Source: a virus. Taken from it: DNA of 38,287 bases. Location of the stretch: UHGV virus genome UHGV-1369766, one strand, 5' to 3'. The notes under the pieces are model-generated. The model made no database searches, was not told the DNA's origin, and was given only the letters and a program-made list of their open reading frames with translations. Shown here one piece after another: positions 6,696 through 12,775 of the stretch. Position numbers and translations under genes: made by a program. The first letter of the stretch is position 1; each line of letters opens with the position of its first letter.

Positions 6696-7319
6696 CTATG
6701 CGGACTCGGAAGGAAGTCCAATCATCTTATTCAAATCTTCTACCCGTAAAGCAGGAAGTGCTGTACTTGCTTTGTCTGCTTCTTTTGGTAGCAATTCTTT
6801 GCTTTCAGGCCAAACTTCAATAAGTCGCTTAACTGTTGTGACTGAGTTCAAAGCAGCCCATACATTTGATTCGATATCCTTTTTCTTGGTTTCAAGTTTT
6901 TGTTGCAATGCGCAGATTTCATCAAACCTTTTTGTTATTTCGTGTTCTGCATCAAACATGCATTTATCTTTGGTTGGAGTAGGGAGCAATATATCTTCGC
7001 CGTTGCCGTCTTTCCCATATGAATGCCATCCAACCCTTCTGCCAGATACAGTCAGATAAATTGAAGTAGAACGAACATCGTATGAGTAAAATGAACATCC
7101 CATCTTTTCAAGTTCTTCACTTATAGCTACTAACCTGGATGATAACTGATCCACTTCCTCAGTTTTCTTTTTACCGCCAAACGCAATAACTCTGGCGTCA
7201 AGTGCAAGCTGGTTCTTTAACTTTGTTACTTCTTCAAGTTCAGTGAAAACCCCAGACTTAATTAAAGCGTTACGAGCGATTTTCTCTTTCATTCTCGTAG
7301 TTAAGCGGATTGATGACAT
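6696..7319 (-). CDS. Hypothetical protein immediately downstream of N
   Basis: 207 aa from the ATG at 7317-7319 (GAGGA RBS); 11 nt after the N stop and upstream of the tL1-like terminator; no family recognised. Confidence 0.6.
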   Translation of the reverse strand: MSSIRLTTRMKEKIARNALIKSGVFTELEEVTKLKNQLALDARVIAFGGKKKTEEVDQLSSRLVAISEELEKMGCSFYSYDVRSTSIYLTVSGRRVGWHSYGKDGNGEDILLPTPTKDKCMFDAEHEITKRFDEICALQQKLETKKKDIESNVWAALNSVTTVKRLIEVWPESKELLPKEADKASTALPALRVEDLNKMIGLPSESA

Positions 7320-7330
7320 ATTAATTCCTC

Positions 7331-7630
7331 TCAAATAAGTGGTTTGCTGCCTAATTTTATTTTCTGGCGACCAACACAAGTCACACCCATTTCACTGCGT
7401 GGCTTGCGGTAGTAAATACGGTTCTGTTTACGCTCGACTTCTTCTGCCTTCTTGCAGCGAAGGCTTCCGAGTGATGCTGCTTTGTCTGCTCTGACGCAAC
7501 CAGAGAGCTTTAGCGCAATTTTTCGCGCCAGTCGCTGCTCTTGCATTGCCTGTTCACGTTGAGCCTGTCTGCGTGCTCTGCGGCGATTTCTGGCGTTATC
7601 GTCAGCCAGATATGTAATGACTACTGTCAT
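7331..7630 (-). CDS. N: Antitermination protein N
   Basis: 99 aa; arginine-rich motif NARNRRRARRQAQ near the N-terminus; C-terminus ...YYRKPRSEMGVTCVGRQKIKLGSKPLI resembles my recollection of lambda N (...YSKPGERGITCSGRQKIKGKSIPLI); GGAGG RBS. Confidence 0.85.
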   Translation of the reverse strand: MTVVITYLADDNARNRRRARRQAQREQAMQEQRLARKIALKLSGCVRADKAASLGSLRCKKAEEVERKQNRIYYRKPRSEMGVTCVGRQKIKLGSKPLI

Positions 7631-7942
7631 GTTGACCTCCGATGAAACAACTTTGGAATTTTTTTATTACAAAGTTGTTTCCTTCCCCGCCAATTAGACG
7701 GGGATGGAAGAGCATTTATGAGCCTTCATGGACTCTGCTCGATCAGTTCTATTTAATTAATCTCTCAATTGAATGTAAGTATTCACATAAATCCTCCTAC
7801 CTCTTGTGCAGCTTTCTTGAATATGGTGGCGGCTGCATAACGCCTATGGAATTGACTTTGGCGGTGACGCGCCGGGTGCTTATCTTCCGGTTGCCGTCGT
7901 GCAGCTGCACTTCACGTCACCCCAAAGCCAACTACTCTTTGG

Positions 7943-7985
7943 TTCCCGCATTTCGGCGGGACAATCCCATCAATGTTAAAGAGCA
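7943..7985 (-). promoter_or_regulatory. nutL (boxA TGCTCTTTAA plus boxB hairpin CCCGC-CGAAAT-GCGGG)
   Basis: Minus-strand reading; the boxB is a 16-nt exact copy of the nutR boxB; ~40-80 nt downstream of the PL candidate. Confidence 0.65.
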
Positions 7986-8030
7986 TGCCAATCTGTTCCG
8001 TTTGGCTTCCAGCGTCCTGCTGATGGCTAA

Positions 8031-8059
8031 AGAATACTGTAGGTATTTTATTGTGTAAA
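8031..8059 (-). promoter_or_regulatory. PL-like early leftward promoter (-35 TTTACA, 17-bp spacer, -10 TATTCT)
   Basis: Read on the minus strand; both hexamers overlap operator repeats; same -10 hexamer and geometry as the PR candidate. Confidence 0.5.
8033..8047. promoter_or_regulatory. OL operator site (AATAC-TGTAG-GTATT)
   Basis: Perfect inverted half-sites with 5-bp spacer; one of six related sites. Confidence 0.6.
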
Positions 8060-8072
8060 TACCCAAGGTATT
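8058..8072. promoter_or_regulatory. OL operator site (AATAC-CCAAG-GTATT)
   Basis: Perfect inverted half-sites, 25 bp centre-to-centre from the neighbouring site. Confidence 0.6.
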
Positions 8073-8102
8073 TATTTTTGATGAAATAATGATAAGCAAA
8101 TG

Positions 8103-8117
8103 AATACAAAGGATATT
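8103..8117. promoter_or_regulatory. OL operator-like site (AATAC-AAAGG-ATATT, one mismatch)
   Basis: Imperfect copy of the same motif. Confidence 0.4.
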
Positions 8118-8203
8118 TATTTTTTCGGTGTCTGCTTGTTCAGTGCTTTTTATGCGGGATATGTGAAGTGGATCCCGATAGCTATTGCTGCCGGGATTAT
8201 AGG

Positions 8204-8572
8204 TTAGTCAGCGAAGGTTAAGACGAGAATTACCTTAATGATGTCTGCTACAACAGACACGGCCATAGATAAACCAAAGACGATCCAAGCCACAGTGATG
8301 TCTTCACTACCATCGTATAGAGTTCCGTAATCACTGGTGTAAGGCGTAAATGTCGCGCCTTGATACAATAGGTATAAGCTTGATCCATAGAGGATAAATG
8401 CAGATATCCCTTGTATTGCTATGATCACCAGAATCATGAAACGAGCTGATCTATGCGCCCAAGCCTGGCTTATTTTTTCTGATAGAGATTTCGCAATAAA
8501 AGCATGCGCTAAGCCGTAAATTGTCGAGATTGCCAACATCCCAAAAAAGCTTGCTATAGCGGTTCCAACCAT
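8204..8572 (-). CDS. Small three-helix membrane protein downstream of cI (rex-position gene)
   Basis: 122 aa from the ATG at 8570-8572 (AAGGGG RBS, 17 nt after the cI stop); three hydrophobic segments; same strand and operon position as rexAB in lambda. Confidence 0.6.
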   Translation of the reverse strand: MVGTAIASFFGMLAISTIYGLAHAFIAKSLSEKISQAWAHRSARFMILVIIAIQGISAFILYGSSLYLLYQGATFTPYTSDYGTLYDGSEDITVAWIVFGLSMAVSVVADIIKVILVLTFAD

Positions 8573-8589
8573 AATCGCCCCTTGCGTGA

Positions 8590-9306
8590 TCAAACCAGCC
8601 TTAGTTTTGTCTCAATTGCAACGCCTATAATCTTGCAGTTTCCATTGATTGGCACGAGAGGCCATGCAGGATTAAGTCCCTTGAGGTATTTATTTCCGCC
8701 GTCGATTATCAGCTTCTTGAATGTTGCTTCGTTAGAGTCAGAAAGTTTTGCTATGACCAAGCTGCCGTTGATCGCCTCCCTTCCGGTATCGAAAAGAACG
8801 AATGTTCCCTCTGGAATGCTTAACCCAACCGGTGCCGTCATTGAATCACCTTCCACTTTAAGCCAGAACGCATTACCTTGAATATGCGCGTCAGACTCAA
8901 GCCAAACATCTATGTCTTTAATGGTGTATGGTTCGCATGCTTCACACCACGAGCCAGCCTGGATACTGCTTAACACCGGATACCTCTTTCCTGCTCTGTA
9001 TTCCCCTGCATACCTTACGTTGGCATCGCTCTTAAGGCTTTCTGCCTGTTCTGCAACCTTGGCAGCAATTGACTGGCTAAAATCAGCAATTGAGACTTGC
9101 AACAGTCGTGCAAAACCAGATGCAACCTCAACGTTTAGCGCGTTTCTGCCATTAAGATAATGCCCTACCGCTCCTTGGGTGATACCCAGTTCATCAGCGA
9201 TTGAGTATTGGGTTATTCCCAATTCTTTCTTTTTTGACTCATACAAAGCCTTAAGCCGCTTAGCGTCTTCGAGCTGTTCTGTCGTCAGTGATTTTTTATT
9301 TTCCAT
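8590..9306 (-). CDS. cI: CI-type prophage repressor (HTH plus LexA-like S24 peptidase domain)
   Basis: 238 aa; N-terminal HTH (QYSIADELGITQGAVGHYLNG), C-terminal autocleavage-type domain (...VEGDSM...KL...); divergent to cro across an operator-rich intergenic region. Confidence 0.9.
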   Translation of the reverse strand: MENKKSLTTEQLEDAKRLKALYESKKKELGITQYSIADELGITQGAVGHYLNGRNALNVEVASGFARLLQVSIADFSQSIAAKVAEQAESLKSDANVRYAGEYRAGKRYPVLSSIQAGSWCEACEPYTIKDIDVWLESDAHIQGNAFWLKVEGDSMTAPVGLSIPEGTFVLFDTGREAINGSLVIAKLSDSNEATFKKLIIDGGNKYLKGLNPAWPLVPINGNCKIIGVAIETKLRLV

Positions 9307-9317
9307 AGCTTAATTCT

Positions 9318-9332
9318 AATAGCTAAGGTACT
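9318..9332. promoter_or_regulatory. OR3-like operator (AATAG-CTAAG-GTACT, degenerate)
   Basis: Weaker copy, 24 bp from the next site, nearest cI. Confidence 0.35.
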
Positions 9333-9341
9333 TAAACTAAA

Positions 9342-9356
9342 AATACCCTGAGTATT
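9342..9356. promoter_or_regulatory. OR2-like operator (AATAC-CCTGA-GTATT)
   Basis: Perfect half-sites; overlaps the -35 of the PR candidate. Confidence 0.6.
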
Positions 9357-9383
9357 GATTGCTTTGAATACCTGTAGTATTCT
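9355..9383 (+). promoter_or_regulatory. PR-like early rightward promoter (-35 TTGATT, 17-bp spacer, -10 TATTCT)
   Basis: Hexamers overlap the OR2 and OR1 sites; ~30 nt upstream of cro. Confidence 0.5.
9367..9381. promoter_or_regulatory. OR1-like operator (GAATAC-CTGTA-GTATTC)
   Basis: Perfect 17-bp palindrome including flanks; overlaps the -10 of the PR candidate. Confidence 0.65.
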
Positions 9384-9412
9384 TTGTTCATGGTTAATAA
9401 CGGAGAGTGCAT

Positions 9413-9607
9413 ATGATTCGAATGACACTTGCCGATTACGCCAAAATCCATGGACAGGCTAAAGCAGCCAGTGACTTTGGTGTAATCCAGTGCGCTATCA
9501 GCAAGGCCATTCTGGCAGGTCGTAACATTATGGTTACGGTAAAGCCTGATGGCAGTGTGATTGGAGAGGAAGTTCGTCCTTTCCCAAGCAACAAGAAAAA
9601 CAAATAG
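9413..9607 (+). CDS. cro: Cro repressor
   Basis: [33 protein letters not shown]...FPSNKK closely parallels my recollection of lambda Cro; GGAGAG RBS before the ATG at 9413 (track ORF starts 6 nt earlier at GTG). Confidence 0.85.
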
Positions 9608-9613
9608 TAACAC

Positions 9614-9658
9614 CGCTCTTTAACAGTCATGGTCATCATTCCCGCCGAAATGCGGGAA
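9614..9658 (+). promoter_or_regulatory. nutR (boxA CGCTCTTTAA plus boxB hairpin)
   Basis: boxA matches the lambdoid consensus CGCTCTT(T)A; followed 15 nt later by the TTCCCGCCGAAATGCGGGAA hairpin; lies between cro and cII. Confidence 0.7.
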
Positions 9659-9715
9659 TACAACGCGCATAAGTTGATGCGCATAACTTCTTATTAGTTA
9701 AGGAAATACTTACAT

Positions 9716-12568: not shown

Positions 12569-12775
12569 GTGGCTGAGTTTATGCTCGTCGCATTCAAATG
12601 CGTTGGCGTTGGATGGATTCTTCTGACGTTTTTTATTGTTCTGCATAGCTACATTCGTCTTGTGAATGACGGCAAAGACCCATGGTATACGTTGTTTGGC
12701 GCTGCATTTGTCTGGGTGATTATCGGTGTTATGCCTGTTGTCGTAGCAAAAATGGCGTGGCGTTTTGTGAGTTGA
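12569..12775 (+). CDS. Small two-helix membrane protein
   Basis: 68 aa, GTG start with GGGGGAG RBS; hydrophobic; preferred over the overlapping minus-strand ORF because all neighbours are on the plus strand. Confidence 0.4.
   Translation: MAEFMLVAFKCVGVGWILLTFFIVLHSYIRLVNDGKDPWYTLFGAAFVWVIIGVMPVVVAKMAWRFVS

Follow-up and report, generated by a model that had tools for sequence, protein, structure and literature searches.

Predicted operators of a lambda-type switch of the HK620 immunity group, with a candidate third leftward operator 45 bp from OL2

The window, i.e. the whole stretch of 38,287 nt that was analysed, belongs to a P22-like/lambdoid phage, and its immunity module has the order N, OL/PL, hkaS-like gene, cI, OR, cro, cII (Table 1). 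The cI protein matched the lambda repressor 3bdn over its full length (residues 3-232, E 2.9e-52). Its QAG, G(D/N)SM and TFKKLI motifs aligned with the lambda cleavage site, serine and lysine, respectively, and the match to lambda cI included residues Q33, Q44, N52, N55 and K4. The cro gene is divergent from cI, and the recognition helix of its product is QCAISKA. The hkaS-like gene lies downstream of cI in the position occupied by rexAB in lambda; no Pfam family was matched by its product. A search of the whole window against Rfam at gathering thresholds also gave no matches.

Table 1. Genes, promoters and predicted operators of the immunity module (positions in the window)
Feature	Position	Strand	Description and basis
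N antiterminator gene	7331..7630	-	First gene of the PL operon; HK620 annotation; weak Pfam N_peptide match
PL	8031..8059	-	-35 TTTACA 8059-8054, 17-bp spacer, -10 TATTCT 8036-8031; promoter scan
OL1	8032..8048	.	GAATACTGTAGGTATTT; perfect core; over PL -10 (5 bp) and spacer; OL1 of HK620 annotation
OL2	8057..8073	.	AAATACCCAAGGTATTT; perfect core; 3-bp overlap with PL -35; OL2 of HK620 annotation
OL3 (proposed)	8102..8118	.	GAATACAAAGGATATTT; 45 bp from OL2, 28-bp spacer; matrix rank 5
hkaS-like gene	8204..8593	-	Predicted membrane protein, 129 aa; ORF list, HK620 hkaS annotation
cI repressor	8590..9306	-	238 aa; Pfam HTH_3 and Peptidase_S24; lambda-cI-like HTH N-terminal domain, S24 self-cleavage C-terminal domain
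PRM (putative)	9313..9341	-	-35 TTTAGT 9341-9336, 17-bp spacer, -10 TAGAAT 9318-9313; read from sequence
OR3	9317..9333	.	TAATAGCTAAGGTACTT; two core mismatches; matrix rank 7; OR3 of HK620 annotation
OR2	9341..9357	.	AAATACCCTGAGTATTG; perfect core; 3-bp overlap with PR -35; abuts putative PRM -35; OR2 of HK620 annotation
PR	9355..9383	+	-35 TTGATT 9355-9360, 17-bp spacer, -10 TATTCT 9378-9383; read from sequence
OR1	9366..9382	.	GAATACCTGTAGTATTC; perfect core; over PR -10 and spacer; OR1 of HK620 annotation
Cro	9413..9607	+	64 aa, lambda-Cro family; Pfam Cro E 3.6e-26; lambda Cro E 4.7e-19

An earlier note on this DNA had described six copies of an AATAC-N5-GTATT motif, four perfect and two degenerate, as the operators of OL and OR. 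Scanning of the window recovered exact matches to AATACNNNNNGTATT at 8033-8047, 8058-8072, 9342-9356 and 9367-9381 only, where the note had placed the perfect copies; the motif was confined to these two clusters and did not occur at similar density elsewhere. Against these four matches, 0.00 were expected from 100 dinucleotide shuffles, none of which (0/100) contained any. The two degenerate copies, at 8103-8117 and 9318-9332, have one and two core mismatches, respectively. With up to two mismatches allowed, 20 matches were found in the window against 13.3 expected, so that counting by itself does not make the degenerate copies significant. With a position weight matrix trained on the four perfect 17-mers alone, however, the corresponding 17-bp sites 8102-8118 and 9317-9333 ranked 5th and 7th of 38,271 window positions. 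The chance of such a site occurring within 64 bp of a perfect pair was about 5e-4 for 8102-8118 (0.0024 with local AT-rich shuffles) and about 2e-3 for 9317-9333. The sixth-ranking position, 12674-12690 (AAAGACCCATGGTATAC), was the other strong match; it lies inside a 68-aa ORF, distant from promoter regions, and was read as chance because about one match of that level is expected per window. From these sites, the functional unit is predicted to be a 17-bp lambda-type site, RAATACY-N3-RGTATTY, a pseudo-palindrome centred on a base pair. Neighbouring sites are 24 bp (OR3-OR2) or 25 bp (OR2-OR1 and OL1-OL2) apart, as the earlier note had claimed for both clusters, but its figure did not hold for OL2 and the third leftward site, which are 45 bp apart. 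The low G+C content of both operator regions (26-36%) would be in keeping with palindromes that arose by chance in AT-rich intergenic DNA and are unconnected with the repressor. This explanation is refuted by the absence of perfect copies from the shuffles and by comparative data, since the motif co-occurred with the repressor helix type among 80 loci and its positions relative to the promoters were conserved.

In both clusters one site overlaps a TATTCT -10 hexamer and the next site overlaps the -35 hexamer, as previously noted, and the promoters annotated as pL and pR in phage HK620 match exactly. PL directs transcription leftward through nutL into N and lies within the annotated pL (window 8024-8059). 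PR directs transcription rightward into cro and lies within the annotated pR (window 9355-9390), with overlaps that mirror those of PL. It was missed by a consensus promoter scan because of its score of 8/12; its GTATTGA and TATTnT elements recurred in relatives, in which the arrangement of OR was conserved together with the fused promoter elements. PRM has no annotation in the HK620 record. A TAnnnT hexamer ending 6-8 nt ahead of the cI ATG was present in 23 of 26 related loci, and in the window the A of the ATG (9306) lies 7 nt past the putative PRM -10 hexamer, implying a leaderless cI mRNA. OR3, the weakest site, is 10 bp from the cI ATG and overlaps the -10 hexamer and spacer of the putative PRM; a third site was also found at this position in relatives. 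Three pseudo-palindromes between cI and cro, over PR and the putative PRM, make up the layout of a lambda-type switch.

The HK620 genome (AF335538) was 99.2% identical to the window over the shared 90% of positions 7600-9700, with cI and cro at the same offsets, and DNA identity of about 99% covered cI, hkaS, cro and both operator clusters. The HK620 features OL1, OL2, OR1, OR2, OR3, pL, pR and pRE are sequence-identical in the window, their strings being found exactly at 8032, 8057, 9366, 9341 and 9317 (OL1, OL2 and OR1-3), 8024 (pL) and 9355 (pR). The four perfect motif copies are OL1, OL2, OR2 and OR1 of that record, and the degenerate copy at 9318-9332 is its OR3. Between nutL and N the window is longer than HK620 by about 206 bp, extra sequence that HK140 has too. 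An immunity region of the HK620 type was likewise found in mEpX2, HK630, HK140, HF4s and some Stx phages, and 146 of the 5,426 complete E. coli genomes carried the module. The source paper for HK620 is Clark et al. 2001 (J Mol Biol 311:657), as cited in PMC2629481. A search for the operators of HK620, mEpX2 and HK140 returned no experimental work and no cI/Cro binding data in the searchable literature. The position of the sites, flanking genes for a cI and a Cro homologous to those of lambda and overlapping the early promoters, together with the HK620 annotation, supports their reading as OL and OR, and the six sites very probably serve as operators in a bistable, lambda-type switch belonging to the HK620 immunity group. 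Of the six, five appear as features in the HK620 record, along with both early promoters, so that the switch was already known and the finding is correct but ordinary; with a switch of textbook lambda-type design, its significance extends little beyond annotation.

The sixth site is the one at which the window analysis and the HK620 record diverge. The record places OL3 at window 8079-8095 (TGATGAAATAATGATAA), at the lambda-like distance of 22 bp from OL2, and assigns window 8092-8122, which encloses 8102-8118, to a feature 'tIMM', read by the depositors as a terminator; on this view it would be the intrinsic terminator of the cI-hkaS transcript. We consider it very unlikely that the record is right for the left cluster, even though both features are annotated in this way in AF335538, the stretch is an A/T palindrome beside a T/A run, and in five relatives a third site does lie some 21 bp from OL2. 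The sequence TGATGAAATAATGATAA is unlike the other operators, with a matrix score of -13.8 and a rank of 14,533 of 38,271, and relatives with a third site at +45 also scored poorly at the alternative offsets (-10 to -25 at +21 and -6.5 to -25 at +22). On the cI-sense strand, terminator scanning and RNA folding from the hkaS stop to OL2 revealed no G+C-rich hairpin with a U-run behind it, and the 'tIMM' reading was rejected since this region has no convincing intrinsic terminator. In addition, changes in the arms of the palindrome were non-compensatory, leaving two of five positions unpaired in three of seven relatives, while L011, L019 and OS31 have separate canonical G+C-rich terminators beyond the equivalent of 8102-8118. 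Judged from sequence comparison, the 'tIMM terminator' is predicted to be the OL3 palindrome, and the record appears to put OL3 in the wrong place.

An offset scan of relatives showed the +45 offset and the 28-bp spacer in eight loci, and L020 had them as well; the +45 offset was thus seen in HK620, Serratia phage OS31, L010, L011, L012, L029, L062 and L019/L020. For alignment, seven distinct +45 sequences were used plus L019, to which L020 is identical; those outside HK620 came from diverged relatives in six further species records and from Serratia phage OS31. Identity among them was 0.81 in the core arms versus 0.35 in the centre, a pattern like that of OL1 and OL2. The spacer was 56% identical, indicating that the seven sequences are partly co-descended and not fully independent, and the distal flank was 40% identical. 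Whether the left or the right half-site was the perfect one varied with the lineage, and a perfect motif copy was found at +45 in the Kluyvera locus L029. Five relatives had a third site at +21 instead, so that the +45 arrangement is not universal, and in L005 and L066 no third leftward site rose above noise. The latter two loci would fit a system with only two working OL operators, in which 8102-8118 is a decaying duplicate of OL2 and its flank TATTTATTTTT and has no regulatory role. The flank TATTTATTTTT is indeed common to OL2 and 8102-8118, and phage 933W reportedly has only two OL sites. Such decay is nevertheless quite unlikely, as the 45-bp offset and the 28-bp spacer length were exact across lineages whose spacer and distal flank had diverged, the core was conserved far beyond the centre, and the Kluyvera copy was perfect. 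The site at 8102-8118 is predicted to be the real OL3, and its correction would apply to a module carried by several Stx-converting phages and by about 3% of the complete E. coli genomes.

The spacing of 45 bp is, to our knowledge, outside those for which adjacent-site cooperativity of lambda cI has been documented, and it equals the OR2-OR3 distance (24 bp) plus two helical turns. The +45 placement may be tuned so that OL3 pairs with OR3 when the repressor forms a loop, or the spacer may accommodate a second factor or promoter. Inspection of the 28-bp spacer by eye for an IHF site or a second promoter motif showed weak similarity, from which nothing is claimed. That the third leftward operator, with its conserved unusual placement and length-invariant spacer, represents a distinct OL architecture that was mis-annotated in HK620 is a possibility we put forward tentatively and with some doubt.

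For the switch as a whole, we infer cI and Cro binding, an affinity order, cooperativity, PRM activation and looping. In the prophage a cI dimer would occupy each site, and during lytic growth a Cro dimer would do so. Binding of cI to OL1/OL2 and OR1/OR2, each pair 25 bp apart from centre to centre, would block the -10 and -35 hexamers of PL and PR and turn off the early operons. At OR2, next to the weak PRM -35 hexamer, cI would probably activate leaderless transcription of its own gene, and the weak OR3, over the PRM -10 hexamer and spacer, could let cI regulate itself negatively or let Cro repress cI. OL3 would most likely act as a weak distal partner, either cooperatively with OL2 or through OL-OR looping to OR3.

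An evolutionary code has been described for Cro, in which helix residues H1, H3 and H6 pair with half-site bases +2, +5 and +6 (PMC6649833). In the window, Gln at H1, Ala at H3 and Lys at H6 stand against A +2, A +5 and C +6 of the half-site RAATACC, so that all three pairings agree with the code. Proteus Cro has Gln at H6 yet retains C at +6, indicating that the code is a partial guide only. Among the 80 related loci, all 25 with the cI helix QGAVGHY(L/I/M)NGR had at least two motif sites, as compared with 5 of the 55 that share the C-terminal domain alone (Fisher 4e-16). A lambda-type Cro with the helix Q-x-A-I-S-(K/Q) was encoded in 20 of these 25 loci. Position 1 of the half-site was a purine where Cro had the helix IQC and cI had Tyr34, and a pyrimidine where they had HQT and Gln34. 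Purine-flanked sites include those of the window, HK620 and the Tatumella and Serratia prophages, and pyrimidine-flanked sites those of the Lelliottia, Lonsdalea and Pantoea prophages. This split suggests that the common AATAC core may hide at least two immunity specificities. The Stx1a phage locus L002 had different operators, of the ATAACC type, and was uninformative. The 17-bp operator definition is usable for predicting homo- and hetero-immunity among such prophages, and the 25 diverged pairs of cI and operator, of which 20 come with a lambda-type Cro, could extend studies of the protein-DNA recognition code.

Lambda cI and lambda Cro are the nearest solved homologues of the window proteins, and the module resembles that of lambda in its 17-bp operators centred on a base pair, with O1 over the -10 and O2 over the -35 hexamer, in an OR2 that abuts the PRM -35 hexamer, in a cI mRNA that is probably leaderless and in the conserved RecA-type cleavage motifs. 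The lambda half-site consensus is TATCACC. The window half-site shares A2, A5, C6 and C7 with it, whereas positions 1, 3 and 4 differ (RAAT versus TATC), as does the OL2-OL3 distance (45 bp versus about 20 bp in lambda). From lambda to the window, the cI helix has the substitutions Ser45Gly, Ala49His and Ile54Arg, and the Cro helix has Ser changed to Cys and Asn to Ser; going by the lambda contacts, these changes match the differences at half-site positions 1, 3 and 4. Immunity specificity differs from that of lambda. The c2 protein of phage L/ST64T was 48% identical to the window cI over residues 21-234 and has a related recognition helix (TQGAIGHWLNGR), but it lacks a match to the lambda-like N-terminal arm and its partner Cro is unrelated. 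A related half-site (CAATACAAAATGTACTT) occurs there in two copies 25 bp apart at PL. These phage L/ST64T sites are asymmetric (AATAC/AGTAC), and a third site, read by eye, apparently lies about 30 bp away.

Four exact copies of AATAC-N5-GTATT were found in the 38,287-bp window, starting at 8033, 8058, 9342 and 9367 as the earlier note had placed them, and none in 100 dinucleotide-preserving shuffles. The two degenerate copies named there were likewise recovered, with one mismatch at 8103-8117 and two at 9318-9332. With as many as two mismatches allowed, 20 matches were counted in the window against 13.3 expected, so that counts alone gave the degenerate copies no significance. A symmetrised weight matrix was therefore derived solely from the four perfect 17-mers, and every window position was scored with it. 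The segments 8102-8118 and 9317-9333 ranked fifth and seventh of 38,271 positions. Shuffles yielded about 0.3 and 1.1 matches per window at these two levels, which gives a chance of about 5e-4 and 2e-3, respectively, for such a match within 64 bp of a perfect pair; with shuffles of the local AT-rich DNA, the chance was 0.0024 for 8102-8118. The most fitting description of the sites is a 17-mer, RAATACY-N3-RGTATTY, with a base pair at its centre. The sixth-best match, AAAGACCCATGGTATAC at 12674-12690, was rejected, about one such match being expected by chance; it falls in a 68-aa ORF that follows the replicative helicase gene.

The matched promoter geometry proposed for the two clusters was found at both early promoters, PL and PR: in each, the -10 hexamer shares 5 bp with the promoter-proximal site and the -35 shares 3 bp with the next site. 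The proposed spacing of 24-25 bp was observed between OR3 and OR2 (24 bp), OR2 and OR1 (25 bp) and OL1 and OL2 (25 bp), but the third leftward site lies 45 bp from OL2.

Annotated and predicted features of the immunity region
Feature	Position	Strand	Description
OL1	8032-8048		operator
OL2	8057-8073		operator
OL3	8102-8118		predicted operator
OR3	9317-9333		operator
OR2	9341-9357		operator
OR1	9366-9382		operator
PL	8059-8031	minus	TTTACA, 17 bp, TATTCT
PR	9355-9383	plus	TTGATT, 17 bp, TATTCT
Inferred PRM (cI promoter)	-10 9318-9313; -35 9341-9336	minus	-10 TAGAAT; -35 TTTAGT
Repressor cI	8590-9306	minus	238 aa; Pfam HTH_3 and Peptidase_S24
Cro	9413-9607	plus	64 aa; Pfam Cro
CII homologue	downstream of cro
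N-like antiterminator	downstream of left cluster
hkaS-like ORF	8204-8593	minus	129 aa, hydrophobic

In megablast searches, 7600-9700 was 99.2-99.8% identical to HK620, HK630, mEpX2, HF4s and others, and 96% identical to HK140. The region is the HK620 immunity module, functionally a lambda-type switch, and at least 80% of 8000-9420 is carried by 146 of 5,426 complete E. coli genomes. The HK620 record (AF335538) has explicit features for OL1-3, OR1-3, pL, pR, nutL, nutR, tIMM and pRE. Exact copies of its OL1, OL2, OR1, OR2, OR3, pL, pR and pRE are present in the window, at positions matching the sites and promoters of the earlier note; thus five of the six sites and the promoter geometry were already in public annotation, and that finding is correct but known. 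Beyond this, the analysis adds only a new position for OL3, the definition of the site as 17 bp, a putative PRM and a view of how widely the family extends.

The record places OL3 at window 8079-8095 (TGATGAAATAATGATAA), and the third site of the earlier note falls inside its 'tIMM' terminator (window 8092-8122). The cI protein was scanned against one genome per species, yielding 80 loci (L-numbers), and wherever an OL1/OL2 pair was found the best match 17-80 bp past OL2 was taken as the third site. This site lay at exactly +45 from OL2 in the window, HK620, Serratia phage OS31 and loci of Tatumella saanichensis and T. ptyseos (L010, L011), Serratia bockelmannii (L012), Kluyvera (L029) and Pantoea (L062), as well as in two Yersinia loci (L019, L020); in five others, from Lonsdalea, Pantoea and Pectobacterium, it lay at +21. 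The annotated OL3, with a matrix score of -13.8 and rank 14,533, was rejected. Anchored alignment showed a 28-bp spacer of fixed length in the +45 class. Among seven +45 sequences, which share ancestry and are not fully independent, identity at site 3 was 81% over the ten arm positions and 35% over the five central ones, compared with 95% and 37% at OL1 and 100% and 36% at OL2, while the spacer was 56% and the distal flank 40% identical. Which half-site of site 3 is perfect varies, some lineages having a perfect left half and others a perfect right half, and in Kluyvera both are perfect. This is the pattern expected if a weak dimer site, rather than RNA pairing, is under selection, and no terminator-like hairpin was found on the cI-sense strand around the site; the tIMM reading was rejected on both grounds. 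Separate canonical G+C-rich terminators lie beyond the third site in L011, L019 and OS31, and no canonical intrinsic terminator was seen in 8119-8203, between the hkaS-like stop codon and OL3. Matrix score, relatives, conservation and lack of a terminator together identify 8102-8118, at the level of sequence, as OL3, indicating that OL3 and tIMM are wrongly assigned in the record.

Lonsdalea britannica (L009) may carry four leftward sites (at about 3537, 3561, 3582 and 3607), the two besides OL1 and OL2 being 21 bp (score 9.6) and 45 bp (score 8.6) past OL2; if so, this locus would link the two OL architectures of the family.

Among solved structures, the lambda proteins were closest to both cI and Cro. 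The window's cI aligned with intact lambda repressor over residues 3-232 in the same numbering (E 2.9e-52) and keeps K4, Q33, Q44, N52, N55, the QAG cleavage site, the G(D/N)SM serine and the TFKKLI lysine, but has G for S45, H for A49 and R for I54. Set against the lambda half-site consensus TATCACC and the contacts known for lambda, the half-site shares A2, A5, C6 and C7 and differs at positions 1, 3 and 4. Cro matched lambda Cro with E 4.7e-19, its helix reading Q-C-A-I-S-K instead of Q-S-A-I-N-K. All three pairings of the Cro 'evolutionary code', H1 Gln/A+2, H3 Ala/A+5 and H6 Lys/C+6 (PMC6649833), are seen between the window's Cro and half-site.

At least two motif sites were present in all 25 loci with the cI helix QGAVGHY(L/I/M)NGR, compared with 5 of 55 loci sharing the C-terminal domain only (Fisher 4e-16), some of these five having a related ATACA-type palindrome and a related helix. 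Of the 25 loci, 20 encode a lambda-type partner Cro whose helix reads Q-x-A-I-S-(K/Q). Phage ST64T/L combines a similar helix, TQGAIGHWLNGR, and half-sites of the form AATAC/AGTAC with an unrelated Cro.

The inferred PRM -10 ends 7 nt ahead of the A of the cI ATG, and no Shine-Dalgarno sequence lies between them, implying that the cI mRNA would be leaderless; of 26 related loci, 23 have a TAnnnT hexamer 6-8 nt ahead of this ATG. If the switch works like that of its lambda homologues, PL and PR would be occluded by cI dimers bound to OL1/OL2 and OR1/OR2. OR2 spans -35 to -51 of the inferred PRM, from where activation would be possible, and OR3 overlaps its -10 and spacer, so that Cro or high cI would repress it. 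The +45 distance exceeds the 24-bp OR2-OR3 spacing by 21 bp, or two helical turns, which would give OL3 the same rotational setting relative to OL2 as OR3 has to OR2. That the spacer does not vary in length points to a possible phase constraint, which could reflect cooperativity with OL2 or an OL-OR loop of about 1.3 kb in which OL3 pairs with OR3.

Members of the family occur across many Enterobacterales genera, and also in Microbulbifer with 43-45% cI identity. Three Microbulbifer loci (L063, L065, L066), marine gammaproteobacterial prophages, keep the helix QGAVGHYLN(G/A)R and perfect AATAC-N5-GTATT sites with an apparently different Cro, so the cI/operator pair seems older than the cI/Cro pairing. 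When loci L005-L032 and L062 were compared with the window, a purine at position 1 of the 17-mer (GAATAC/AAATAC) accompanied Cro helix IQCAISK and cI 'TQY' (Tyr34), and a pyrimidine (TAATAC/CAATAC) accompanied HQTAISK and 'TQQ' (Gln34). Position 1 may thus mark sub-specificities within one core motif, and the family could then fall into separate immunity groups.

The hkaS-like ORF, without a Pfam family, lies directly 3' of cI, overlaps its stop codon and occupies the position of lambda rexAB; its product may be expressed from the prophage and serve in exclusion or at the membrane. The stretch immediately following N in the PL operon (6696-7379, minus strand) encodes a 227-aa protein with a full-length match to Nmad5 (nucleotide modification associated domain 5; E 1.3e-71). 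A stretch of about 206 bp at 7644-7850, between the N start codon and nutL-proximal DNA, is shared with HK140 but missing from HK620. This segment has tiny ORFs only and no Rfam match; on the PL-transcript strand it contains two perfect hairpins, CCCCGTCTAATTGGCGGGG and AAACAACTTTG...CAAAGTTGTTT, the latter directly upstream of the N ribosome-binding site, and may be a structured N leader.
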